From: Hydrolagus affinis
Lineage: Eukaryota
Assembly (NCBI GenBank): GCA_012026655.1
Contig: JAAILG010000163.1
Location: 1-64,000 of the forward strand
DNA: 64,000 bases
Direction: 5' to 3'
The translations under genes and the position numbers were made by a program. Below are positions 1,379 to 60,777 of the stretch, piece after piece; the stretch's first letter is position 1, and every line of letters starts with the position of its first letter. The notes beneath the pieces are model-generated. The model was not told the origin of the DNA. It ran no database searches and was given only the letters and a program-made list of their open reading frames with translations.

Positions 1379-1480
1379 GAGTGGAGTAAGGAAACTTGCC
1401 CAGGGTTTCATCCTGTCTGGAATCGAACCAGGGTCTCTCACTTGCAGGGCGAGTGCTCTCACCACTGAGCTACAGGAGCT
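1379..1480 (-). mobile_element. tRNA-derived head of SINE A
   Basis: Reverse complement agctcctgtagctcagtggtgagagcactcgccctgcaagtgagagaccctggttcgattccagac..caagtttccttactccac, with A and B boxes. Confidence 0.85.
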
Positions 1481-2792: not shown

Positions 2793-3449
2793 CAGTTGGT
2801 CACACCAAATGTACCTGATCATTGATTCTTCACCCACCCCCACCATGGCTTCCACTCAGCCAATGTCTCCATGACACATGAGCCCTTCAGTTCAGTTAGT
2901 TTGTGCTTTGATCTGGATTGCTTTACATAGAATGAATGGTACCCACTGCAGGCATTTCCAAATAAAGAAACCAGATTGACTTATTGCACATTAACTGGAT
3001 ACTGATTTGGGAAAGTTTTCTACATTCTGTACAGTTTTTGGTAAAAAAATAAACAAAAACAAAATTTCAATTGACTTGAGAAATGAGACATAAGAATCCG
3101 GACCTTCTAATGAAATGGATGCTTGAAGCGAGTTTTGTATTTCTCGAAATCTGTTTACTTTTTCGTGTTTGCTTCTGATTGTGAGCCGAGTGGGTTTTTT
3201 TTCTCCTTGGTCTTCACCACGGTGTTGTGTTGCCTCACCACGTCAACTTGTTAATGCTTGGCAGATTCTTCCTGCTGCCTGGCCCCTTACATACTTTAGT
3301 CATTTCATGCTTTCCTAATGTCGTACAGAATTCAACATTATAATCCCTTTGATGACCTCCACTTTTGCATCAATTAGTGATATCACAAGACGCGAGGTAT
3401 TGGCTTTCAATTTCCGGATCCTGTTCCACCTTCCCCTTGTGTGCCAGCC

Positions 3450-3620
3450 TGGCTCAGGGACATTGTTCTCACCTCTGAGTCAGAAGGTTATGGGTTTCAA
3501 GCTCCCCGTCGATAGTTGGATTCATCTAAGATGACTCCGCAATGCTGGGATGGGGGTGGGGGGAGGGTCTGTTGTATTGTCGAAGGTGCCATCCTTTGGA
3601 TGAGACAAGGTTCCGACTCC
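3450..3620 (+). mobile_element. 5' part of Deu-domain SINE
   Basis: tggctcag..ctcacctctgagtcagaaggttatgggtttcaagc head followed by gtcgaaggtgccatcctttggatgagac. Confidence 0.75.
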
Positions 3621-3657
3621 CCCCTTACCCCTCTTTTCCCCCTTTCTCCCCTGGCCC

Positions 3658-3900
3658 CACTTCCATGACTGTTTGTGGGACACTGCTGTGTGGTATTTGG
3701 TTGTCACGTTTCGCCCGCAAATATACAGTCAATTTTCTTACTCTCCTTCACCTTGCCCCGACCACTTCCCCCCTGCTCTTGTACCTAGCTAACCGTACAG
3801 CGCCTTGGGACGTCCTCTCGACGTGAAAAGCGCGATATAAATGTAAGTTTTGATTGATTGAACTGCCTGTTCAGATGGCTATATCACATGCAAGTGTTCT
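3658..3900 (+). mobile_element. SINE A core interrupted by L2 3' tail (3734-3860)
   Basis: Core ccatgactgtttgtgggacactgctgtg..atatacagtcaatt, then pyrimidine-rich L2 3'UTR plus cagcgccttgggacgtcctctcgacgtgaaaagcgcgatataaatgtaag, then SINE remainder gctatatcacatgcaag. Confidence 0.75.
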
Positions 3901-4894
3901 TCTGATTATTTGGTGCAACAATTTGGTGAATCCACTTTTAATGCTTACATTTAATTCACTACGTAGCTCACAAATTGCACAAATTGCGTGGCTTCTGAGG
4001 GGAAGGGTTTAATGGTTGTAGAGTCAGTCCCGTCAAAACAATGTGGTACCAATGGTTTATTGTATTCTGGGGAGGACGGGCGAGGGGGAGTTGTATCACA
4101 ACTGGTGAAGAGTTTATTCTTGTGCCTTTTTTTTTTAACAATCCGCTCGGTGTTCTGTGGGGACGGAACGTGTCTGTGGAGAGCCACGGATATCCTCCAC
4201 CGGTGGAGATTTTTTTTTTTTCGGAGGTGGCAAGAAATCGAGGGAATAGAAATGATTACCGCTGTGTGCAACGTGGAATGTTAAACACTGCTTGAACTGG
4301 TTAGGTTTCTGGATCCCTTTCAGTAGTAATTTGATGCAAAACAGGAGCAATTATAAATCCACTTGAGACAAAGTACAAGCAGCCTGACAACTCGAAAAGG
4401 AAGAGCAAATGTCAACATTGTGACACTTACACTCTGGTTTGTTTTTTCAAACTCACAATTACATCATTAAGCTTTTTTTTATTCGGCGCAGTAATTGTGG
4501 GTGGGGGGGGGGGGGGGGAAGGAGGAGAAAAAAAACATCCAGTGTGTTTTCAGTTGTAATTGTTGCATGATTTGAACTCTCATGATTGATTTATAGACAT
4601 ATTCCAGAGCCCTAATGTACCACTTGTTCTTTGTTTGTGATTTTTTTTTCTTCTTCTTCTTCGCTTTCCCTCTCTGTGCACGTAATTTTATTAATTCCCA
4701 CAAAGGTACTCGGTGTTCTACAAAAAAAAGGTTCCAGAGAGTCTGTGGAAAGCTCAACGTTTATCATCTCCAAGATCCTTAAGTGCGGTTAGCATATTAA
4801 TGCTGTCTCTCTAACTGCGCATTTGGTGACTAATTGCCATGATGTTGGTGTACCTTCTGTCGTAGTTCTATTCCTGATACCACAACTCCACTCA

Positions 4895-4980
4895 CTCCAC
4901 TTTAAAGTATATATTCCGTGAAGCGCTTTGAGATGTCTTGAAGATGTGATCAGGTCTATGTCAACTCCTATTATTATTGC
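4895..4980 (+). mobile_element. SINE A 3' tail
   Basis: gtgaagcgctttgagatgtcttgaagatgtgatcagg..tattattatt. Confidence 0.75.
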
Positions 4981-6137
4981 TACCACTTGAGATTAGAATG
5001 AACCAACACTCTTTGGAGTTGAAGGTGACTTGAGTTTCCTTGTTGCAGATCACGGCCCTGGTGGACAGTCAACACTGCAGTGTTTGTAGTGGGATGGGGG
5101 GAAAAGCACAAAAGGTGTGCAATCTCCTTGATTTGCAAGATTTGGGAGTCTGAGCGCTTGCAGAGAAGATCTAAATTGTTCATCTGTGCACAGAAGGAAA
5201 GTATGTGATGGCCTAGAAAGGAGTTCACCCCAACAGTAAGCTGCAATACAGGCCAAATTTACATTTATATGGTGCCTTGGCCATTCTTATGGACATCTCG
5301 CATTTACATAACGCACTTCATGCTGGGAGGTGGCCTGGAGCATTTAACATCGATCTGGTATTAAATGTTATCATCTCAATCTCATCAATGAGATTGAGGG
5401 CATCGGGAGAGTGGTGCACAAGATTGACTGGTGTGGAAAGTGGACTCGTACGTTCCACTAACTTAAGGTGGAGCAAATTGGAGGTCCAGAATTCCACTCT
5501 GTCTTCACACACAAGTCTTGAAACGCTTAAATTTCAAAATAAATGCTGCAGCACTTGGAGTAATAGAATGTAGAACGTGGCTGGAAATTGATTTAAATGT
5601 TCTTTGAAAGAAAGAACAGAAAGAAGAATGGGTTTTGAAGTTGAAGACAATTTGCTGGCTTTGGTGACTTTAGAAATGTTTTGTTAAAGAAAAATAAGGC
5701 ATTTGTGATTTTTAAAAAAAAAGGCATTCAAGCCTTGCTCTTTAATCAACCTCTGGTTCAAGACCTCGTTACAAAGACAGATGTATAATTTTGGTGCAAA
5801 AGTGCTCAATGGGTCTCCATCTCCTGAAACCATCCCAATTTGCAAGAATTACCCATGTCATACAGAGAATATCAAATGAAGGCGCAATAGATTGTTCACC
5901 TTGAGGTTGCTGTTCCTTTTCCAAATCATATTATTCCCCACACACTCCATTTCTCATCTTCCTTTCTTGCCTCTGGTCCATCGGTCTTATGTTTATTACA
6001 CTTCTAACTTAGGATTTCTGCATTAGTGGCATTTATTTGAGTTTCGGTAATTGCAAGTTCGCAGGAAGACTCTTTAACGTTTTTTTTTGTGTGTTCAGCG
6101 GGTTCACAACCAATACATTTCATGGCAAACCATTGGG

Positions 6138-6237
6138 AACAGCGTTTGAGATGTTTTGACGACGTGATAAAGTATCACATCAACAACAACAAAATTACAT
6201 AGTGCCCTTCACGTCAGGAAAGGACGCCCCGAGGCAC
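6138..6237. mobile_element. Tail-to-tail SINE A tail (+, 6138-6181) and L2 tail (-, 6181-6237)
   Basis: cagcgtttgagatgttttgacgacgtgataaag abutting caacaacaacaaaattacatagtgcccttcacgtcaggaaaggacgcc. Confidence 0.65.
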
Positions 6238-7629
6238 ATCAGATGAAGGGATTCTTGTTACTTTTGTCTCACATAAGAAAAGTGAGTAAACGATGAACTC
6301 TTATGTCCTCTTATTTTACGACACAAAGCCGATTATTCATTTTAAAAGCAGGTGTTTTTCGTTGCCTCGTTTGTCCCATTATTTAACCCTGCTTCCAATT
6401 TGCAAGCAAACTGCATTTCAATACACAGTCCACTGCATCTCTTTTTGTTCGATGTTGCGTCAAACAAAACTGCATCATCTCCCCTTCATATCCTGGGCGG
6501 GCAAGCGAGCTTTGGAATGTCTATGTCACTTCTGATGGAAGAGGTTTCAGAGTGGACAGGGACAGTTTTTGATGGAACTAATATTTGTTCTTAAGCCCTT
6601 AGAGTGGGAATGCCACCTCGTAACCCAAGATGTGATCAAACACTCACAAATATGGTTTGAGCATCTGCTGGGACTTTGAATGAAAGCCACACTGTATGTG
6701 CAGCCAATGTTTGGCATTGGGCCATTCACATAACATTAGTGTTCACATTACACGGAGCTTCTTCCAACATCTGCTGTGTTCTTTAAAGCCGCACGTTGAA
6801 CTGCTAGAACGAGTTGCTTGGTGAGAGAGAAAAGAGAGAAGAGAGAAAAAGATCAATTATTCCACACTTTGCAAACTATTTGATTGTATCATATCGTCTA
6901 GCATGATTAGTTAAATAGGTAGAATTTATGAAGAAAGGGACAGGGCAAGACTGGACGCAAGAGAATGTTTTCTCTTCTATGTATAAAGAGAGAGGAGAGG
7001 CGGGGGAGAAATCTTGTGAATAGCGAATAATAAAAACTGACCATCTGCGAAGAGAATTGACTGGAACAAGGTGCCGAAAGATGATGAGATGGCATTTTAA
7101 AAGAGGGAGCGTATAAACGTAGAGAAAGATAAAGGATGACAAGAAAGTGAAATAAAGCTTGGAGCAAAGACAAAACTGGTAAACGTAATGCTGCTCACAA
7201 CACAGCAAAGAGACATAGCTTCACTCTTGGAAGGATATTGAAGGAGCTGTGAAGGAAAAGCTAGGTTTGAGCCTCTGTTGGTTTTCCTTCCTTCCACTCT
7301 TTCACTGCCCCTCGCTCTGCCCCATGTGTGACTAACCCAGTTTGTACCAAACTTTTTTTCACACCTACACACACTGGGGTCTTATTTTCAGGCCGATGTA
7401 CAAAGTTTTGCAGCTTGTGTGAACAGATGTGGAAACGCAAGCAGCTGGACTAAATTGTGTAATTAACCGGCCTGTGAAGGATTCCAGGATCACCTGTAAT
7501 CTTTTTCTCGTTGGTTTAACAATTAACTGGTAATGGGCGAGCCCCTGAGATCAGCAGCTCACAGGTTCAATCCTTTCATAAAAGTGCAATTTCCTCCCCA
7601 CATGTCCTTTTTGAATATGGTTAACATTA

Positions 7630-7752
7630 GAATAATAATAATGAATCCCTGCATTTGATATAGCACCTGATCACATCTTTCGGACGTCGCAAAGCGCTTC
7701 ACAGAATATACCTGTCCAGTGAATTGACCGCGTACTTTTATGGGCCAAACAT
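7630..7752 (-). mobile_element. SINE A 3' half
   Basis: (aat)n..ctgcatttgatatagcacc..aaagcgcttcacagaatata..gtgaattgac. Confidence 0.85.
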
Positions 7753-7938
7753 TTTTCACGTAATGCGCAAGCTTGTCAAGATTTAACCCTTGCAAATTAA
7801 ACACCAGCTCCCAACATAATTCACAATATAACTGTTGGCGACAGCTGATAGTTGACAGACGTTTGAGCAAAACATTTTTAAAAAATAGTTTGAAAGAGGA
7901 TCATAAATATACATATATATACATATGTATATATATAG

Positions 7939-8062
7939 AACAACAAAATTACATTTGGATAGCGCCTTTGACATTGGGAGGGTGTCCTGAGGTGCTGTAT
8001 TAGAATATGTGAGTTGAAGTCTCTGCTGTGGAAGCTTGAACCCATAACCTTCTGAAATTCAA
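7939..8062 (-). mobile_element. L2 tail (7939-8003) plus Deu-SINE head fragment (8030-8062)
   Basis: caacaaaattacatttggatagcgcctttgacattgggagggtgtcc; cttgaacccataaccttctga. Confidence 0.6.
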
Positions 8063-10479
8063 CCCGAATGCATGGAAGGATCTATTCTCATACTGGTGGC
8101 TGCTATTTTCTCTTAATATAAAATCTGGTAGTATAAAATCTGCCCAATTTTAATTCTGTTTTCAGTGGGAAGAGAATTTACAGCACACGAGCCCGCACCC
8201 CCCACCCTTTATACAGACATTTACAATTGGTAGGATGTATCCAACACTAGTAAAGTTTATTATAGCCATCGGCCTGCTTCCATTTTGTTCGTCATCTGGC
8301 AGAGTTTTTGATATCTCTCTGGGGCAAAGGAGGTTGATCAAACCTGAAGGAATATTCAACGTGAATAAAGGTGGTTGGGCGGGCCCCTGAAACGAACACA
8401 AAATTAAGCGAAACAATTCTGTGTGTGTGTGTGTCTCTCTCTCTCTCTCTCTGCATTGATATAATTTAGCTGATGCAAGTTCTAATAATTTTACAACGAA
8501 CAATAACAATTCACCGTGTGGTGGAAAGGAATTATTTGGGGGGCAAGCTGGAAAACACGGAGAGTACTCTGAAGATTAAAACACATGTGCAGAAAGCTGT
8601 AAATCAAACGGCAGTTTGTAAATTTACATTAAGGCTTCCAACATTTTTATATTGAGAAATGTCCAGCATGCTAATTATATTAGATCATCATTTTCATCTG
8701 GAACTAAGCAATCTCTGGCTAGAATTCTCTATAGATGGGCTAAAATGGTGGTGTGTTGCCAGTTATTGTACTGAAACCTTGTTTGAATTAGTGTCTGCTA
8801 AATGAACGTACCCCACTGTGATGTAAAGACTGAGCTCCCAGTGGTTTAGACTATCTTTAGTGAAAGGCATATTTATATCTTCCAGACTGGTTATTAATCA
8901 CTCAGTGGGTTTTTTGGGTACGTACATTCATAGAAAGTCTTTTTGTCCTGCCAGAAAGCACAAGAATGGCTGTAATTAAAACACTGATTTAATTTATTGC
9001 ATCAAGGCACGAAAGGTGCATGTTTTAAACAATGCTGACTCAAAGCACCACCTCTGTTATAAATGAAAACAAAATGCTGGAAGAAATTAAATAATTTTAA
9101 TTGCATTTTTTTCACAAAAACCTTGTGGAGTGGCGGAGAGCAAGGTTTTCGAGGGGAGAAAGTGACATTGGATATTTGCACGTCGGCAATAGAGAAATAG
9201 ATTGAAGCAGTCAAATGTTGGATAAAAGGTATATTCATTTTGATTTTTGACAATTAAACTTGCACCTCCTTCGCAGTTAAATATACCAGCCTCTTTAACA
9301 TTCAGGCTGTTTTAAGTAATTTTTAAGCCACAGGTGGGGGACCGTATATGTACAATTCAGCAAAAAAAAAAGTATCCAATTTTCTTTGTTCAGTAATAAG
9401 AAGGTCTCTTGTATAATAACTCAATTTCCCTAAGCTCATAAGGAAACTTAATTTCCTTCAGCCCACGTAGTTATGAGTAACATTTTATGCTGCATTATGA
9501 TCGTGCTTTGACGGGAAGAACTACTGAGCCTGAATTAATATTTTTCATGGCAACACAATACTTGTGTTGTATCCATAACTGGTTCGTTTTTTTAAATGCA
9601 AAAACAAAGTTGAAAAGGAGGGACGATGGCTAGGGAGAGGACATCATGAGCACTCTCGTGCCATTGCTACAAACTAGTTCCAGGTAAAATAAAGTGGCAA
9701 AATCTGGAGTGACATTATTGATGTATAATATGCTTTAAGACCTGTGACCCAAAGTCTTTCTGAGAGAGGGTCAACTTTGGACCATTTGATCTCACCCTCT
9801 TTGGAATAGTAATTCCACCGTCTCCCTGAAGCGATGAACAATGGAAACTTTATTTTCCCAACAGTTTTGAATAGTTTGTGTGAATTGGCACTGAGTATAG
9901 CTCAGTTCTTCTGTGAAATTGCGTACATATTCTAAAGCCCAGGTCTCCAGCGGACCTCACATTAAACACATGATTTCCACAAGACCTATATTTGTCATTA
10001 TGTTGCGTCCCAAGGAGGTTATGAGAATAAAAAGGGATTTTTATATCTTGCAGTTAATTTCTTTTTCTTTAAAAAAAAGCTAAGTTGCAATGGAGGGAGG
10101 GAGAGGGAAGAAGCACTTAATGTATACTCTGTAGGCTTTGGCATATTAACTGCACCAGGGCAGATAATTTGATGCTGCTCTATGTAACTGAGTTTGTACC
10201 TAATGTAAAAACATAACACATGCTGGGATCAGTAGATTATCAAGGCTGTTTCAATAATGATTAAGATTAGCATAGCTCAGTTTACATTCTGACGCCTTCC
10301 TCACTTTTGTAATAAACTTTTTTTATATAAACTGTTCCCTGTTGTGTATATCATACTTATTGAAAGAGAATGAACACCACTGTCTTTATTTATTAGCTCA
10401 TTAAAGTTGCGTTGATGCACTTGGGATTTTTTTTTTACATAACCTACATATTTGTTTTACACACCCTGTCAATCGAGCA

Positions 10480-11250
10480 ACTTGTGGATTCAATCCCATT
10501 GTCAGGATTTCACCTTGTAGTCTAAACGTGCAGGGGGAAAGCATGGCATGATGAGAGATGTCACTCTATTTGTATGAGACTTTAGGCTGACTCTCTATCT
10601 GGAGGTGCTATCAATTGGATGACTTGTGAACTCTAGGTACAGTCTGTCTGTTTAGATTAACAGTTAAAAATCCTGTGGCACTATTTTACATGTATTCTTC
10701 TGGTATCCTTGCCAGCAATCACCCAGAAATAATTGGTCATTCTCTTCATCATAATAATAATCCTTGCGTTTGGTATAGTGCGTTATCAAATCTTCGAGGC
10801 ATCTCAAAGCACTTCACAGAGTATACTGTACTGTAAAGTGAGTAGACTGTGTATTTTGTGGGTGAAACATGGCAGCTTAATGCACAGAGTAGTATCCCAC
10901 AAACTTGTGGATTGAAGTGACCGATTTTTTCATTTTGTTTTTAAAGGAATTATTTCCACGGAAAAGCCAATTAACCAACAAGCAGTTTGCTACTTACTCC
11001 TAGGTAATCAGAGATGTGTGGAGTAAGGAAACTTGCTCAACCTTTTGCCCTGCCAGGAATCGAGCCCAGGTCTCTCGCTGGCGGGGCGAACGCTCTAATC
11101 ACTGAGCTATGGGACTCCATGCGGCTTTTGTGGGACACTGTTGTGCCCCAATTAACTGCTGTGTTGACCAACAAAACACATAGACACAACACTCTTCATT
11201 AAATTCCTATTGGAATTTTTTTTTTAATCAGCCTCTTGATGCGAAAGCCA
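10480..11250 (+). mobile_element. Old Deu-domain SINE split by a younger antisense SINE A
   Basis: Deu motifs (ggaggtgc, aaaaatcctgtggcactatttt, tggtatccttgccagc, ggtcatt) stop at ~10750 and resume at ~11120 with ggcttttgtgggacactgttgtgcc. Confidence 0.65.
10751..11118 (-). mobile_element. Full-length SINE A (long variant)
   Basis: Tail, core, tacctaggagtaagtagc segment and tRNA head (ggagtcccatagctcagtgattagagcgttcgcc..gggctcgattcctgg on minus). Confidence 0.85.
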
Positions 11251-13046
11251 GAATATTGTGAAATCCATCAGCATAACTCCTAGCTTGGTCTACACAAACA
11301 CTTGTGCGGTAATCAGCTGTGAAGCATTTTGAAACATTGCAATGTGAAAAGCACTGTGTGTGTGTATGTGTGGGAGAGGGGTGCGTGGGTGTATTTTTTT
11401 TAAAAAGTGTTCTTTTTGAAGGCGGAAGTAATTACCAACGGGAACTGTTTTTTGGACGGTTTTGAATTGCTTATGAGGGAGAATAGGAAACTGACTCTCT
11501 TTGCCTGCATCAAAGCTGGTCAGGTTGTGAAAAAGCTGAAAGTCGATGCATGTTTTCAAACCCAGTTGCTCACATATTGCTCCCAATCCCCCATCGCCCA
11601 ATGTGGAAACCATCTTGTGTTTAATGGGTGCCAAGATAATCATAATTGTCATTTAAAATAAACTTGGAATATCATTATTACAGTGGCTCTGTTATTGCGA
11701 ATAACATTCTAACTTTGTATTTAGTCTGTAACTTCTCTGTAATTTTAAAATCTGGAGGTAAGTTTTGAAGTGCGTTGCCAAAGAAAGCAATGTAAAAGTA
11801 TACAGCTGCAGGTAATTTGAGGCAAGCTTTGCTATGGCTGGAAATACAGAGTAAACATGGATTTTATCCACAGTCAACAATGCTCTCAACTCTGTGCCAA
11901 GGAGGCTACTGAAATCCTGAAAATGTGCTGGGGGAAAGAAGGTATGAAAGAGCAGATGGCGATAATCAAGTCCATATAGCACGATTTTGACTTGCTCTTT
12001 TTTTTGTTGGAAGCAACATCACAAAAAAAAGATGTTTTTCTAATAGGGAAACTATAGAATCCAGGTCCCCCGAGTCTCAGCTGCCTAACTAATTCTGACA
12101 GGGCGATTACTATATTAGTTTTTCAAATGAAGAGCTTTCTTAATATTTGCTGAAGGGTTCCAGTTATTGGCACTTTCTTTTTTCTTTCTGTGTGTGTTGT
12201 TGAAATCTGTTGTTTTTTTTTCCCCTCTCTCTGCTTTCCGAGGTTCGCTCTCCATAGCTTGGCAGTACACATTGTCTGGAATTGTACAATTAACAGCTTC
12301 CTCCCGTGTGGTCGTGTTGAACAGTCACTCCCTGTGCGGGAGGTAATTGCACAGATGCTGCACAGTCTTTGTCCTGTTCGAAATAACTTGCAGAAGTGTG
12401 ACATTTGGAGAAAATAAAAAAAAATAGAAGGGGGTGGGGAGTGGGGTGGGGTGGGGGGTGGGGTGGGGGGTGGGGTGGTGGTGAGAGTGAGGGAGGCCTT
12501 GAGAACATACATATTTCTTTTAAATACATGTTTAACAGCTGTGCCAGGGCATTGACTTGTACGAGTTGGTCTATGTGCCATTCAACTGAGTTGATTTCCC
12601 CCCCCCACCCCCCCTACCCCATTTAGGTTTTAGTTGGAACAATACATACCATGAAGGGGAAACGTTAGGAAATAGATTTGGTAAAGTTGTGGAAACTAAT
12701 GGTTTGGATGAATTACGCTCGTGCAAACAATCCTGCGTTGGGTGGGAGCCAGGCAGAGTGTTGGTCGTGAGTACGCATATGGTAGAAGTCTGAAACAAGA
12801 GGCTGCTTTGCACATCTGTATTTCGTCTTTAGACCATCAATTATTTTGTACAATGTATGCAAGTTCCTCTTGATTCCTTCACTTTGTTTGAGGATTAAAA
12901 GGCTCAACTGTGTTCCTCAAGCCCTCGTCTTTGCCTGTGAGAGTTTTGGGGCTTTTAACAATTAGGCAGAATTGTGGAAAATTCTTAACCTTAGACACGG
13001 TTTGGAAGCAGTCTTCCAAATTAGAATTCGACTTGATAGGTTTACA

Positions 13047-13090
13047 ATAATAACAGTAGTAATAATAATCCTTGCATTTGATATACGCTG
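13047..13090 (-). mobile_element. SINE A tail fragment
   Basis: aataataatccttgcatttgatatacgct. Confidence 0.7.
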
Positions 13091-13163
13091 GAAGCTTAAA
13101 TGGTAATCTTAAACAGTAGTGCACTATGTTTTTTTTTAACAGCTTAAGAGAGGATGACACTTC

Positions 13164-13200
13164 AGTCCTGATGAAGGGTTGTAGACTTGAAACGTTGACT
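13164..13200 (+). ncRNA. Minimal type I hammerhead ribozyme motif (Penelope type, probably decayed)
   Basis: Stem I AGTC(13164-67)/GACT(13197-200); CTGATGA core 13168-74; extra A; stem II GGGT/ACTT around TGTAG; GAAA 13189-92; loop-less palindromic stem III AC|GT; cleavage triplet GUU. Confidence 0.65.
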
Positions 13201-13298
13201 CTTTTTCCTTTCTCCATGGATGCTGCTTGACCTGCTGAGTTTCCCCAGCAACCTTTGTTTTTGTTTCAGATTCCCAGCATCTGTAGTATTTTGTGTTT
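13166..13298 (+). mobile_element. Short Penelope-like-element-derived insertion with 11-bp TSD
   Basis: Flanked by exact TGACACTTCAG at 13155-13165 and 13299-13309; body resembles a common chondrichthyan repeat (ctgatgaagggt..gaaacgt..gatgctgc.tgacctgctgagtt..ccagca..ccagcatctg). Confidence 0.75.
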
Positions 13299-13536
13299 TG
13301 ACACTTCAGGGCTCTGGTTATACAGAACAGGAGATTGTGGGCAAGGAAGCAACGCGCTGTGACATGTAACAAAGTTCACACTAGGTGGATGACACCAATG
13401 GGTGTACGACGACGGAATGAAGCGAAATAAGTTGTGGGAGCGCTATCTCCACACACAGCAACTGAAACAAGTGGAAACCTGGCAACACACCTCAAAGCAA
13501 TAAATGCTCAACTTGCTGAGTATCTCCCATATCCAT

Positions 13537-14170
13537 TTGGTAGCACTCGCCATAAGTCAGAAGGTTGTGGGTTCATGTCCCAAATTGGGATTTTAAACCC
13601 ACACAGTTGAAGTCGATACTCCAGTGTTGTGCTGGGGGGAGAGCTACATTTGTCAACCTTCAGATTACACGTTAAATCGAGGTCTTGTCTGCCTATTCAG
13701 GCAGGCATTCAGGCATTAAAGATGGCATTATTTAATAAGAAGAATGGCATTATTTAATAAGGAGAATAATAAGAATATTCCTTGCATTTGATATAGCACT
13801 TTTCACATCTTATCGATGTCTCGAAGTGCTTCACAGAATACACTGTAAAGTGAATTGACTGTATATTTGTGGGTGAAACGCGGCAATCAATTGCGCACAG
13901 CAGCGTCCCACAAACAGTCGTGGATTGAAAATGACAAAAAAAATATTATTGTGTTTTTTGTGTTTTTTTTGCAAAGAGAAGGGAGTTTCTCCTCTTGTCC
14001 TGACTGACATTCCCTCGGATAAAGTTGGTCACTCGCTTTGTAGCTGTTTGTGTGACGTTGCCAAATTGGCTGCCAATTTGCTGACAGTCACTACACTTAA
14101 CGGTGAATCCTGCGAAGCATTTTGAGATGTCCTCCTGACGTGAAGGTTGCTGCAATGAATGAAAAGATTT
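13537..14170 (+). mobile_element. Old Deu-domain SINE split by antisense SINE A
   Basis: Head ggtagcactcgcc..agtcagaaggttgtgggttca; Deu ctccagtg..cgttaaatcgaggtc; resumes ~13972 agagaagggagtttctcc..gctgtttgtg..aaattggctgcc..gagatgtcctcctgacgtgaagg. Confidence 0.8.
13764..13936 (-). mobile_element. SINE A core plus tail
   Basis: ccttgcatttgatatagcac..aagtgcttcacagaata..gtgaattgactgtatatttgtgggtgaaacgcggc..cccacaaacagtcgtggattgaaaatgac. Confidence 0.9.
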
Positions 14171-14880
14171 ATATTTATCCCAAGAAACAGTTAAAAAAAA
14201 AAAAAAAACAGGGTCTGTTTGACAACAAGTACAGGGTAGAAAAAGAAATGATGTGCACAGTACACTCTAAACATATTGCAGACAGTTAAATTATAGCCCC
14301 ATTTAAAAAAAAACACATACACACACTCACACACAAATCTATCGGGATATAGAGGAGCAATATGGCACTTATTCCCAGGGGGTGTTTTTACCTAGTGATT
14401 GCAGACACATTTTTAAACAGCTTGAATAATTGCTCAAATGTGTTGCCCAACTGTGCCCTGATATTTGATTGACAGCCGTTGGTGAGTCTAATCATCAACA
14501 GATGAATTTTACCGCAGTGAATAATTGCTGTCGAAATGAAAGTGATTTGTTCTATTCTGCTACAAAGGCCCTAAAACAGTTTGGATTTAGGAGAGACGAT
14601 GCTCACTTCAAAGCCTGACTCGGGTTGAATTGAACCTTTACGCAGAAAATATAGTGTCGATCAGTTGTTTTGGTGGAATTGACTGTTTATTCAGTATTTA
14701 AGTTGAATTTATTTTAGGTCCCAAGCATGCAACATCTTTCAGTACATTGAGGGTTTAACTTTAAGCCTAGATTCAAGGCTCTAGCCATTTCCTCATTTCA
14801 AGGGTTGAGATTCACAGGCTGTTTGCATAGCGTAAGTGACAAGCTCTTGATGGCTGTAAAGTGCCTATTTGATTTTGACT

Positions 14881-15140
14881 CAACAACAGCAACAAAATTA
14901 CATTTGTATAGTGTACATCAGGAGGATGTCCCAAGTCAGTGTATCAGACCCATGCTGGGATTTGGGAGAATGGAAGGAGTGGAAGGAAGGGAGGGGAATG
15001 CGGGTGACCGATGGCAGGGTCGAAGCGAAGGGTCTTGAGGTGGGACTTGAAGGAGACTAGGGAGGGGTCGAAGCGGAGGGATTGCAGGATGGAATTCCAA
15101 TGGTTGGGGGCAGAGTGGCTGAAGGCTCCCCTGCCGACTC
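14881..15140 (-). mobile_element. L2 LINE 3' end (RT C-terminus plus UTR)
   Basis: Minus-frame GRGAFSHSAPNHWNSILQSLRFDPSLVSFKSHLKT matches the L2 ORF2 terminal motif G.RAFS..AP..WNSLP..LR....L..FK..LKT; ends in (gtt)n. Confidence 0.85.
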
Positions 15141-15151
15141 CATTGAGTTCC

Positions 15152-15208
15152 ACAACAACAACAGCAAAATTACATTTATGGAAAGCCTTCCACATCGGGA
15201 GGACGTCA
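15152..15208 (-). mobile_element. Additional L2 tail
   Basis: caacaacaacagcaaaattacatttatggaaagccttccacatcgggaggacgtc. Confidence 0.7.
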
Positions 15209-15224
15209 ACAACCATGGGTGCAA

Positions 15225-15370
15225 GGCGGCCTTGAAGAGATGTGGAGAGGCGATCAAGTTCACCAGATAGACATCTGAAAAGGAGCTCTTTCAAGGATGT
15301 GGGGGATAACAAGGCTGAATAGATTGCTCATTCAAAAGACCAGCATGGACATGATGGGCCAAATGGGCTG
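15225..15370 (+). mobile_element. CR1-type 3' end, decayed
   Basis: agattgctcattcaaaagaccagcatggacatgatgggccaaatgg resembles the shark CR1 3' tail. Confidence 0.55.
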
Positions 15371-15411
15371 AGCACATGTTTTGGCTCAATCATTGGTTTG
15401 TTCAAAACGAC

Positions 15412-15722
15412 AAATAATAATAATCCTTGCATTGGATATAGTGCTTTTCACGTCTTCTAGACGTCTCAAAGCGCTTCACAGAATATACTGTAAAGTGAAT
15501 TGACTGTTTATTTGTGGGTGAAACGCTGCAGCCAATTGGGCACAGCAGTGTCCCACAAACAGTCGTGGATTGAAAATGACTTATTATTGCGTGCTTTTTT
15601 AACGGATCATTATTAGGCATGTGGAGTCAGGAAACTTGCACGAGGTTTCGCCCTGATCTGCGTGGATTCGAACGCAGTTTTCACGCTTGTGAGGCGAGTG
15701 CTTTAACCACTGAGCTCCAGGA
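15412..15722 (-). mobile_element. Full-length SINE A (short variant)
   Basis: Tail, core and tRNA-Val-like head (gagctcagtggttaaagcactcgcctcacaagcg..gttcgaatcc on minus). Confidence 0.9.
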
Positions 15723-15799
15723 CAACATAACTGGCGTCTGAGGATTTGGGGATTTCCTAAATCAACATATCAGTGTATCTATATCAAGCCACACTGACC

Positions 15800-16082
15800 C
15801 GTCTCCTTCCTTTTCTCAGCAAACTTTATCGCTCTTTGTAACCGCTGACCTATCCTCCCCACCGTTGATGGGCAGTTTTTCAGCCATTTTGCCTCCACTC
15901 TCTGGAATTCCAACTCGCTGACTCTCTTTCCTCCCCTCCTTCAAAGCCTCTATCAAGACGTAATCTCTTTGACCACACTTTCGGTCAAAGTTCCCCACAC
16001 CAGCTTTGCTGCCCAGCCAGGATTTAGCAGGGGCTTTGAGATCTCCCCCTGATGTGAAAGGAACAGTAAATGTAATCTGTAG
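15800..16082 (+). mobile_element. L2 LINE 3' end, decayed
   Basis: ccaccgttgatgggcagtttttcagcc..ctctggaattccc..ccttcaaagcc..ctctttgacc..gctttgagatctccccctgatgtgaaagg. Confidence 0.75.
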
Positions 16083-16699
16083 TGCACCTGGCGGTTTAGG
16101 TGACCCAGACCAGATGGAAAGTCCAAGTCAAACTATTTCAAATATCCTCGTTTCCAGTGCTGACCAAATACCCTCAGCATGAAGGGAATTTCAAAGAGAC
16201 CTTTATAACTTCATAGTTCACGTATATCCCAATTGTTGGCAGAAGTTTTGAAGATTTGGCAGGAAAGACTTGACTGTTATTGGTGCATGTTGGTCAGTTT
16301 TGCCTGAAGAAGATAGATGTTCACTGCGCGCATGATTCATGCAAACAATTTTATTGTCAGCTGCTGTACTATTAATGTCTCACCCAGCATCACTTCAAAG
16401 ACTGTACAGTTTCCATTTGGTCCCATTCCATCGAGTACATAGTGGAGCCTTGGAATCCCTACTGATTTATACTTTGACTTTCCCCCAAGGTTGCTCACCA
16501 AAGCCTTTGCTCAGGGCCAACTTTATTGGGTGAATATCCTATCAATCTTAGGTTTATGAGTGGAGAACGAAAATAAACTTGCCCGAGTTGTGGATCTCTT
16601 TGCTCGTTGTTTATTGCGATGATTCTATATTTTAAGGTACTTTGTTGCTTTTCAGCATTTTAGTATTTCCTGTGTAAAATCTATTCCATGCCTCGTTGA

Positions 16700-16893
16700 A
16701 CACCACTTCTCATTCAATTGCCCCCTCCCTTCCCACCTTCAAATCCTCCCGAAAGTGTTTCCTTTTTGATCGTGTGTATGGTCACCTTCCCCTACCTCTC
16801 CCCTTGGCTCTGTGTCAGACACCGCCACTGTGAAGCCCTCTTCCATTGTGAAGGATGCTGTATAAATATAACTTAATGTCGTCGTTGTTGTTG
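16700..16893 (+). mobile_element. L2 LINE 3' end, decayed
   Basis: ccttcaaatcctcccgaaa..tttttgatcgtg..ggtcaccttccc..gtgaaggatgctgtataaat..(gtt)n. Confidence 0.65.
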
Positions 16894-16944
16894 TAGTAGT
16901 GTGTGTGTGTGAGAAAGAGAGACGTGGAGGTATTCATTTCTCAT

Positions 16945-17050
16945 TAAGAATCCTTTCTTCAGCCACAGAGTTGAAATTGGAATATGCCAACATGGGTGAT
17001 GTAGAAACACTTGAATCTATTTAGTTTAAGAGAATTCAGATAAACTCATT
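16945..17050 (+). mobile_element. CR1 ORF2 C-terminal relic
   Basis: ttcttcagccacagagttg..tggaat..tttaagagaattcagat resembles FFSQRVV..WN.LP..FK..LD. Confidence 0.45.
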
Positions 17051-18481
17051 TTACCGCTGGGACATGCCCATCTTCCTATGCTGGATTTAAATGAAGAAGT
17101 ATAATTTATTTCTGTGCAATTGTATATCTCATTTTATATAATCAGTTGTACTCTGAGTGAGCAATGCTTACGTTTATATCACTAATGGTCTATCGTAATA
17201 AAACGCTAGGCAGAATTTTATTTCAGTGGGGCATTAAAATTCAGTGTGAATTGTGTATTTAGCTTCAATCAAGTCTCCAACCTATACCAAAACTCGTAAA
17301 GCTCCTATTATTCTCTCCTTCCGAAATTGCAATGATTTGCATGCAAGCTGGTAATATGCTTTCCTAGGATTTAACAATTTATCAAATATGTTAATTCACC
17401 AATGAAGGAGAAATGAAATTAGTCTGGCAATGCGCAACTGTCATTAAAAATGTAATCAAACATAAAATGAGATCAGTAAGAGTTTATCTGGTTTTGGAGC
17501 AAAAAGACATTCTGTCTGACAGAAGATTTAATAGACAGGATGTTAATTCAGTTCGTCTGTAACAGAATTCCTTCAGGCAAAAAAAAACTGTTTATCTGAC
17601 AGCTATTGTAAGCCCAGCTAATTTTTTACACTGCTTTTTAATAGTCAAGCCTTATCATTTATTCTAAGGGTTGGTTGAATGGGGGCTTAAGACGTTTCAC
17701 CTCAGACATTTCTCTGTACAGAAATTCATTTGCATGGTAAATATTCTTATAAATGAGAGGATGCTTATGCTGGAATTACTAACCCCCACCTTCCAACACA
17801 CACACACACACACACACACAGCAACTTAACTCAGTAGTAAGACTGGCAGATATAATTTTACTGACAAGTTTGGGGGTTTTCTGTGCTGTACATTTCTGAA
17901 GTAATGAAATAATCAATACCAAAAATCAAAGGAGAAAGAAAGCCTACCTTAAAGCTAAACTAGAATTTATTTTGGGGTGGTCGAGGTTGATTCCAGAGAT
18001 TAAGTTCTTCAGTGCCTCCACTTCACTTTGAATGCTATTCTGGTATTCAGCAAGTATGAATCTAACTGCGGCATAGAGACGTTTGTGTAAAAGCTGATTC
18101 TCAATGGACTTATTGCAGGAATACAATAAGATCAAAATCGTTTCACGAAGCAACAAAAATGTGCAGCGTTGTCTGTGTTATGTGCAGCAATGTATAAGCA
18201 AACATTTGTACATTCAGGATCTTGCCTTCTGGAATTATTAAAGTGTAACTCCTAACGTAATTGATTGTAAAGGGTATTTCATGTTGGAAGTTTCAGTGAT
18301 ACTTAAGTTCATTGAATTCCTTGCTCTGAATGGTTTAGTGCATGAACAGAAACTGCCTAATGTTGAGGTAAATAGTGATGGAAAATCCGACTTGACTTTG
18401 CTGATGTGTAATGTAATTGCATTTTAACACTGACTGCTACTTTCTGAATTGTAAGTTTGATACATCTTTAAAGTAAACTTG

Positions 18482-18572
18482 CAGTCACTACACTTCACAG
18501 TAAAATCACGTCAAGCTCTTTGAGACATGTGGCAGACGTGGTCAGGTGAACTTCAACTGCAATTATTACTAT
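18482..18572 (+). mobile_element. SINE tail fragment
   Basis: cagtcactacacttcacagt..gctctttgagacatgtggcagacgtgg. Confidence 0.55.
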
Positions 18573-19821
18573 AAATCTCTTCATACATACAAAGAACGAA
18601 TAAGTGAGTTTGTCAGCAAATCAGTTTCAAAAGTCACCAAGGATTGAAAATATATGCCTTTATGTGTATGTCTTTCTTTTAACTGTCCTATTGTAAATTG
18701 TTGTTTAACAATAAGACAATATAGAGAGATGTAATAGAGAGAGATGGATGGTGGACCATACCTTTTCAATTAGAAATTGTTTACATTCCATCCCTCCTTG
18801 TCTTTTTCAGAGATTTTGTTTTGGTTTCTCAGCTGCATCTGAAGATGACTTTATTTGAACAGGGGTGGGTAGGGTGGGGAGAATTTAATGCAGCAATTGT
18901 TAAGAAGAGGCTTTTAGTCAATGGAAGTAATTCAACCCAAATTATAATTGTGTTTTGTTCCTTTTGGAGAGAGGTTTAGAAGCCCTGCAATTATCTGGAA
19001 AAGCAACTCCCTCACCCATAGAAAAGTGCATCACAGTTCATTACATGGGGGTGGCTCTGATTGTTTCTCACCTTTAAAAAATAAATGGTCTTTTCAGATG
19101 CTAATCAGTCCTTGCAGTGTTATCTGACTCGTTCTCCAGTTATTTGACTTAATAATTTATGGAGTGAATTGAGTTATAATTTTACTGTGTCAGAGTAAGT
19201 TGTAATTATACTAATGCTACGTTTGAATTATTTACAAAAAGATGAGTTGATGGTTATAATAACACCATGCCTTTTTGCCTTTTCCTTAAACTGAACCTTT
19301 TTTAAAAAAAAAGAATAAAAAGCTTATGGAAACACAAAGGAGACATCAAACCATTAAGGACATGCTGGCAGAAATTGTGCAGTGCTTCAGTAAATTTCTT
19401 TTGCACCCAAGAGTTTTTCTTCTCTCTCTCTGGAAATCAGTCCAGTTTTCCTTTGCTCTTGACTTTAATTTTATGCCAAGGTTTTGAAAGGTGTATATTT
19501 ATTAAAAGTTGTGGTATTGTAAAATTGATAATTCTACATACATACATTGTATATTTCGGTCAATTAAACAGCAAAATTATTGACATTTTATGAGGAATTC
19601 ACCAAGAATCACTCGCGTCCTGTGATCTTTTTCGAGCAGCTTTTTTTTTCGCACACTGGGGACCAGTAATGTTACTGAGATATTGACTTTGGTTTGGGGA
19701 ATATGCCTAGAGTGTTGTCTAACATTTAGAGGGATGCCAAGCATGTGCATCAAGATGCCTTAAACCATCCTAACGGAACAAACCATGTTTACTCAGCATG
19801 ATTCTTCACATATAAAACACT

Positions 19822-20420
19822 TCAGCTATATCCTTCTCCACGGATGTGATCATCTTGCCAATGACTTCTTGAGGTATGTTTCACTGAGGTTTGGATGGGC
19901 AGCCATCCAGCTGGCTGAAGTCCATCTCCATAGTGAACCTGACCTAGGGTGAACCTTCCTGGAAGCCAACAGCAAATCCATTCCTGAGATCTGCCAGCTC
20001 TGTCCTCAGAACACATGCTATGTGACTCAGTAGAGGTTTCAGAAATGATTTTCCAGAAACCATCAAAAAGGGTGCTTTGTGGTCCAATATCATCGAGTAT
20101 TCTCCAACCTCCCCTCTGCTGCCTGATGAGTGGGCTCTTGCCCTCAGGGCCTACCCGCAAACATCTAAACAAATTCGGAGTTGGCCTTGTGCTTTCTTGC
20201 AGGCAAGAGGTGAAGTACAGTGGGTGAATCATTGTACTGTATGTAGTTTCATGCAACTTGCAACGCAATTTTGGTAGAGGGTTGGGAGCACTTGCTGGGA
20301 TGCAGATGATGCAATCTTTGCAAGTTCGGAAAAAGTTGCAAGATGAAATGTAAAGTGTTGATGAGCCCAGCTCTCCACTGGAGCCTTGTCACGTTTTGTT
20401 GTTTCCCACCTTCGTGAAAC
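19822..20420 (-). pseudogene. Highly decayed IS630-Tc1-mariner-type transposase relic
   Basis: Colinear minus-strand peptide pieces across frameshifts: KD..LHPSK (~KDL.LHPYK), LYFTS (~I.FSDE), DIGP..LFDG (~IGP.FF.G), EDRA..QEWICCWLPGRF (~QQDGA..Q.WL...PGR), SP..MDFS (~SPDL.P.DF), NIPQEVIGKMITSV (~IP...I...I.S). Confidence 0.5.
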
Positions 20421-20935
20421 TTCTTTTTGATTACAAATCACAGTAGTTGGCTGTTGCACCTCTTTTAGCTATTTAAAAAAAATTAAAATAAATATCGATT
20501 TAGAGTATAGGTTTTTTGTTGCCAGCAAAACTGGGAGAGTGGTCTTGTTTTTTAAAAGAATTATAACATATAAATGAAATCACTCCAGTGAGTGAGTGTG
20601 TGTGTGGAAGCAAGCATCATGGGGTATCTAAATAAAAGCATTTTGTGGACTTTCTGAAGTAACTCGCCTACTGTTTGTGAACCAAAGCTAGCCGAAAAAT
20701 AGAACTAAAACTGAAAGGAGCGTGGAGCGTTGCTGTAAATATTTTCCTCTCTCTTAACTTTCCTCACTTCGTTCAGATGTTCAGTAATTTTTGAAGTGGA
20801 AATGCTAATAAGCTTTAGTGAGTTACTTTCATGTGCTTCCTGTGTCTTTTCATATTTCATTCTCCTTCTGCACCATGATACTAAAAAGAAACTTTTGACC
20901 TCATTTTCCAAACAAAGAAGTGATAGAAGTCATAC

Positions 20936-60458: not shown

Positions 60459-60777
60459 AGCTCCTGTAACTCAGTGGTTAGAGCACTCGTGTTACAAGCG
60501 AGAGACCTGAGTTCAATTTCAGGCAGGGCAAAACCTTGGAGAACTTTCCTTACTCCACACGCATAAAAATAATCCCTAAAAAAAAATCAATAATAAAATT
60601 GGTCATTTCAATCCACGACTGTTTGTGGGAACCTGCTGTGCGCAATTGACTGCTGCGTTTCGCCCACCTATGTTCAGTCAATTCACTTTGCAGTATACCC
60701 GTGAAACGCTTTGAGACATTTAGAAGATGTGAAAAGCGCTGAATCAAATGGAAGGATTAATGTTATTATTATTATAA
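60459..60777 (+). mobile_element. Full-length SINE A (short variant; reference copy)
   Basis: agctcctgtaactcagtggttagagcactcg..gagttcaatttc head; core; tail gtgaaacgctttgagaca..gtgaaaagcgct..(att)n. Confidence 0.9.

Follow-up and report, generated by a model that had tools for sequence, protein, structure and literature searches.

The insertion at positions 13164–13300 (+ strand) of the window, the whole 64,000-nt stretch of DNA analyzed here, is one decayed member of a 137-nt hammerhead repeat family of very high copy number, and it is likely a dead-end stub derived from the end repeat (pLTR) of a Penelope-like retrotransposon. It likely represents a known kind of feature and not a new mobile element. 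For comparison with relatives, 21 public sequencing runs were listed (best share, 0.41) and five of them were aligned, namely four DNA runs from four organisms and one RNA run.

Limits and abundance of the repeat unit

The preliminary description had proposed a 133-bp mobile unit flanked by an exact 11-bp direct repeat. The direct repeat around a short element is real: two exact copies of TGACACTTCAG, and no more, are present in the 64-kb window, at 13155 (left copy, 13155–13165, + strand) and at 13299 (right copy, 13299–13309, + strand), and the two copies are separated by a spacer of 133 nt. Such repeats by themselves are not rare, as 17 exact 11-mer pairs lying 50–300 nt apart were present in the window. 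Among arbitrary pairs of boundaries, 6 of 9,072 had an 11-mer pair within 5 nt of both ends, and both copies of TGACACTTCAG are placed on family boundaries seen in the alignments of the public runs, in which family pieces begin at 13161–13168. The final two to three letters of the left copy match the element too, forming a 5' microhomology. Because CAG at 13163–13165 and TG at 13299–13300 also match the repeat family, the latter at its 3' end, the homologous unit measures about 137 nt (13164–13300) and the duplication is partly microhomology. The 133 nt thus stood as the distance between the repeats but not as the length of the unit, which was delimited by depth, pieces and loose ends in the public runs and likely corresponds to the 5' end of the RNA of a Penelope-like element (PLE). 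The unit is single-copy within the window. As in EN+ Penelope-like elements, its 3' end is sharp and carries neither poly(A) nor a tandem-repeat tail, and the TSD is short.

In the public runs, 3,281–20,751 contigs per run were aligned to a 901-nt stretch, other repeats included. The summed depth, which is not equal to a copy count, was 1e4–5e6 on the unit (about 13163–13300), compared with 3–22 on the single-copy flank. With a 149-nt stretch, 5,612, 4,058 and 736 contigs were aligned, nearly all of them on the element part. The family homology stops sharply at 13299/13300, beyond which the flanks are A/T-rich and unrelated to one another (agreement 0.40–0.44); among the rows listed, the loose ends behind these two positions comprised 200 and 382 contigs in run X1, 143 and 258 in X7, and 33 and 75 in X9. 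The segment 13163–13300 is a very high-copy family with a sharp 3' end, and the mobile insertion of a high-copy family was borne out by depth and loose ends in the four DNA runs.

One X1 contig covers 13060–13202 with seven differences and one gap, which indicates that organism A has the same insertion. In a record of X13, a run without cover of the left flank, 13046 is joined to 13542 over 331 nt, compared with 495 nt in the window; the record is 164 nt shorter, its middle is without a listed alignment, and the insert plus one repeat amounts to 144 nt, as against this shortfall of 164 nt, so that the record gives at most a hint of an empty site. Two further high-copy repeat fragments flank the insertion, at 13046–13085 and at about 13542–13600, and the upstream consensus of the latter resembles a tRNA A-box. 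Some family 3' ends in X7 (13300 joined to 13062 or 13064) adjoin the AAT-rich repeat of 13046–13085, and these joints hint at insertion into AAT tracts, comparable to the ATT preference of the anole Poseidon protein discussed below.

The window looks intronic or intergenic, and 30 self-similar repeat segments were present in it (1–64000). The segment 12800–13046 is single-copy and possibly a conserved non-coding element; three organisms differ from it at 2–4 positions over 236–279 nt, and a fourth is about 88% identical. A tRNA-Ala(TGC)-like sequence at 1408–1479 (- strand) and a weaker tRNA-like sequence at 60460–60530 (+ strand) both lie in dispersed repeats and are probably SINE heads. At about 12430–12620, G-rich and C-rich tracts form an imperfect inverted pair of low complexity with weak miRNA matches.

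The hammerhead motif and the decay of this copy

The minimal type I hammerhead noticed in the preliminary description was recovered at 13164–13200 (+ strand). The core consists of CTGATGA (13168–13174), an extra A (13175) and GAAA (13189–13192). Stem I is formed by 13164–13167 and 13197–13200 (AGTC/GACT, 4 bp) and partly overlaps the duplication, as had been stated and as the family boundaries in the public runs confirm. Stem II (13176–13188, + strand) is formed by 13176–13179 and 13185–13188, to which 13180/13184 may add a U-G pair; the palindrome ACGT occupies 13192–13195, and the cut is predicted after U13196. A descriptor requiring the core, the 15.2–16.2 pairing and 4 bp in each of stems I and II, which was written with the motif already known, matched once in the window and in none of 200 dinucleotide shuffles (both strands). 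The Rfam hammerhead models, proposed earlier as a check, gave no match at the gathering score nor at E values up to 10, and weak Rfam matches to CRISPR and miRNA models were attributed to chance. Pattern scans of viral contigs and metagenome contigs yielded no matches, and four pattern matches in prokaryotes, which were alike over only 21–22 nt, were likewise rejected as chance.

Minimal hammerheads (min-HHR) in solo Penelope fragments were published by Cervera and De la Pena in 2014 (PMC4209133), here and below cited, like the other papers, from the available part of the text. That study describes genomes that each contain thousands of solo motifs, which it ascribes to truncated PLEs; the available part makes no mention of cartilaginous fish. 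We found the PLE-type core (CUGANGA, GAAA and UH) in the present motif, together with A13175 as the unpaired base between positions 9 and 10.1, a palindromic 15.2–16.2 and a helix I of 4 bp, within the 4–5 bp of this type. The core, the extra base, the palindrome and a 4-bp helix I are shared with the published motifs, as are G10.1-C11.1 in the dominant subfamily and the occurrence of thousands of mostly solo copies; of the four min-HHR marks of that paper, the family shows three and weak signs of the fourth, covariation. In alignments that favour matches, no variants at 3% or more were recorded in the family for 13168–13171, 13174, 13195 and 13196. In contrast, helix II contains 4–5 bp here and 7–8 bp in Schistosoma, and this copy has a G-U pair at 10.1-11.1. 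The claim of a Penelope-type minimal hammerhead in a mobile family held.

This copy has decayed at stem II, since most relatives have G-C at its two G-U pairs, and the earlier suggestion that these pairs reflect decay was correct. In particular, 13176/13188 and 13177/13187 are G-C pairs in the dominant subfamily but, with T at 13187 and 13188, G-U pairs here, and this copy has neither G10.1-C11.1 nor a stable stem II. C at 13187 was found in 97%, 99%, 93% and 92% of the depth in X7, X1, X13 and the RNA run X19, respectively, and C at 13188 in 79%, 82%, 17% and 66%; these and the other base shares in the family are biased by an 80% likeness filter and by end clipping. In a 46-nt fold, the pair probability of stem II was about 0.04 for this copy, compared with 0.97–0.99 for the four outer pairs when the two majority letters were introduced; with the family-majority letters it was 0.06, a poor fold, in a 155-nt context and about 0.9 in one of 256 nt. 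G10.1-C11.1 is present in the family in X7 and X1, and loose-end consensuses of X13 and X1 (agreement about 0.5) suggest one two-sided change, from G-C to A-U at 10.1-11.1, in a second subfamily that appears in X13. Changes at 13167, which alternates between C and T opposite G13197, and at 13180 are one-sided. N7 varies freely, with C in 72–77% in three runs and 31% in X13. Additionally, about 8.5% of the depth in X7 and X1 shows A in place of core G12; this CpG-type change is as expected for unselected copies under neutral decay. This copy would probably be unable to cleave or to move again.

Coincidence of a hammerhead motif with a duplication by chance is exceedingly improbable. Although no Rfam hammerhead was matched and this copy does not fold into one, a chance origin is already largely refuted by the 0 of 200 shuffles, by the relatives that restore the pairs and by the repeats lying on family ends.

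A second structure had been described downstream of the ribozyme, in which GATGCTG (13219–13225) would pair with CAGCATC (13275–13281). The nested TGCTG/CAGCA inverted repeats at 13219–13289 (+ strand) gave a weak hairpin on folding, with a z-score of -1.65 and 10 of 200 shuffles folding equally well, and the GATGCTG/CAGCATC helix had a pair probability of 0.11.

5' end classes and a longer parent element

Two classes of 5' ends were drawn from the best six loose-end rows per run, with 226 rows beyond these, and class fractions are not derivable because only these six rows were used. Class 1 shows unrelated flanks before 13168 (agreement 0.38–0.39) and includes at least 103 contigs of X1, 46 of X7, 34 of X13 and 120 RNA reads of X19. 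Since only the last four or five letters are common to its members, the start of class 1 lies near A13164, where stem I begins. Class 2 shows a common sequence before 13163 (agreement 0.50–0.69) in at least 57 contigs of X1, 40 of X7 and 181 RNA reads of X19; it was absent among the best six rows of X13. Because class 2 continues into shared upstream sequence, a longer parent exists. In the upstream consensus, which is the ungapped majority of a mixture, TTAAAAA is located at -29 to -23 and is followed, 20 letters on, by CCAGT around A13164. By their letters, the former tract appears TATA-like and the latter initiator-like, and the usual TATA position is near -30. The upstream motif of the parent was not found in the 64-kb window. 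Further downstream, a pyrimidine tract precedes the ATG at 13220, and the frame from there runs through the 3' end of the unit (13204–13300, + strand). At 13218, A is found in 92% of relatives in X13 and in about 18–23% in X7 and X1, which produces a splice-acceptor-like AG before this ATG. ATG 13220 might be the start of the ORF of the parent.

A few opposite-strand joints (13163/13193 and 13164/13202; three contigs and four reads) were present. They fit the inverted copies reported at the 5' end of PLEs and agree with an EN+ Penelope-like element. For the Adineta Pen2a pLTR, a putative TATA 20 bp from an Inr-like TCACT and a TSD of 9 bp have been reported (PMC3846280). The present family resembles EN+ Penelope of Adineta vaga in putative TATA-Inr spacing, short TSDs (8–10 bp there), inverted pLTRs, solo pLTRs and microhomology junctions. 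In contrast to the present family, the copy number is low there, and the available part of that paper describes no stub class with its start at the Inr.

Alternatively, A13164 might not be a transcription start, and the pLTR stub might have arisen by ordinary 5' truncation, with the reverse transcriptase (RT) stalling at the hammerhead or jumping at the AG microhomology. PLE copies are reported to be heavily 5'-truncated, microhomology is present at this junction, and the RNA run is without 5' ends there: in X19, a poly(A) single-cell library of which 27% was read (2,443 reads, both directions), ends did not accumulate at 13164 or 13197, which is a weak test. However, TATA-like and initiator-like motifs surround the same base at promoter spacing, and a stall at structure would be unexpected once the last helix is unwound. 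We consider ordinary truncation improbable.

Relation to Penelope-like elements and proposed origin

No RT or GIY-YIG gene tied to the family was found among the window ORFs or in protein searches of the unit frames, and the autonomous partner anticipated in the preliminary description did not emerge. In the 160 ORFs tested, Pfam gave no matches (20 of the 43 window ORFs of at least 100 aa and 140 of the 437 of 50–99 aa), so these ORFs revealed no host gene and no partner. Protein searches with the + frame from 13199 and with the - frame each gave no matches, and the single match of a profile-free full protein scan was of low complexity and was rejected. That no Penelope ORF was linked in protein searches would suit a retroelement other than Penelope, such as the end of a LINE, with a similar ribozyme; however, the hammerhead variant is of the PLE type, the 5' joints are inverted and no poly(A) or tandem-repeat tail is present, making such an origin very unlikely.

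A self-propagating, non-autonomous 137-nt unit of the SINE or retrozyme kind, transcribed alone and copied by a Penelope RT, would account for the fixed ends, the own duplication and the very high copy number. An internal promoter is known in Drosophila Penelope, and animal retrozymes, which are pLTR-derived, have been reported from one chondrichthyan, their mean unit being 363 bp (bioRxiv 10.64898/2026.07.22.740005). Against this, the same unit was found within a longer element, the listed loose ends and joints gave no head-to-tail signal and the window contains one copy, the anole Poseidon requires RNA past the RT start, and the CpG-type changes hit core G12 in a manner like neutral decay. 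Head-to-tail monomers are not the main form, because the listed loose letters of neither end match the other end; the check for tandem dimers thus gave none in the window or in the listed loose ends and joints, although rare tandems are possible. The unit had no match to a tRNA, 5S or 7SL (Pol III) head of the kind that defines a SINE. Animal non-LTR retrozymes (PMC7229834; bioRxiv 10.64898/2026.07.22.740005) are similarly non-coding and pLTR-related, carry a type I hammerhead and also occur as monomer copies, but they are defined by circular RNAs and by a tandem arrangement in which two or more hammerheads are present, whereas a lone unit with a minimal hammerhead was found here. The separate retrozyme- or SINE-like family proposed earlier was not sustained, given the longer element with shared upstream sequence, the lack of evident tandems and the lack of a tRNA-derived head, and we regard a self-propagating unit as unlikely. 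There is also a slim chance that the 137-nt unit is a minimal self-propagating ribozyme retroelement. Its transcription would begin at its first base under internal promoter elements and read through into host DNA, and the internal RT start of Penelope would set its size, so that tandems, a circle and a 3'-end signal would be unneeded.

The stub reading draws on Anolis Poseidon (PAc) as described by Frangieh et al. in 2024 (PMC11167929). The PAc protein nicks AT-rich DNA with an ATT preference, and its RT initiates within the RNA at +111–118 past the ATG that lies at the hammerhead; the template is uncut RNA and must extend to +172. In both systems, the hammerhead lies about 110–150 nt upstream of a sharp 3' end, which in PAc is set by internal RT initiation on an uncut template. 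The two systems are not identical: the ORF of PAc has its ATG at the hammerhead, whereas most relatives here have ACG and the frame stops at 13228, and no ORF was found for the present family.

We propose that the parent RNA would start at A13164, downstream of the TATA-like tract, and that the GIY-YIG nuclease of the element would nick host DNA. The RT would prime inside the RNA, about 137 nt from its start, on a 2-nt pairing (TG) and would copy the uncut RNA as far as the 5' terminus, after which joining of the second strand via AG/CAG microhomology would leave the 11-bp duplication. An internal RT start and an uncut template are proposed by analogy with the anole Poseidon protein, and the template would have been uncut because the copy holds the whole ribozyme. 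A start defined by cleavage was rejected for this copy, in which everything upstream of the cut site is present. Run-off to the RNA start is supported by the promoter-like spacing and by the existence of two classes of ends. The resulting stub would be without the upstream promoter tract and without a partner ribozyme. We argue that such stubs would be unable to jump again, because the anole Poseidon RT needs template past its main start; promoter activity could nevertheless persist in them, because the promoter of Drosophila Penelope is TATA-less and internal.

In the literature searched, most subscription papers and Repbase being outside its scope, no account was found of chondrichthyan stubs that start at a promoter site; the supplements of PMC4209133 and bioRxiv 10.64898/2026.07.22.740005 may list this family. 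This copy is ordinary and probably inactive, and the single promising lead lies in the fixed ends of the family. Thousands of fixed-end stubs could record both the start of the Penelope RNA and the priming point of reverse transcription. Whether hammerhead cleavage has any use, a question left open in the available parts of PMC8557442 and PMC11167929, could likewise be read from them.
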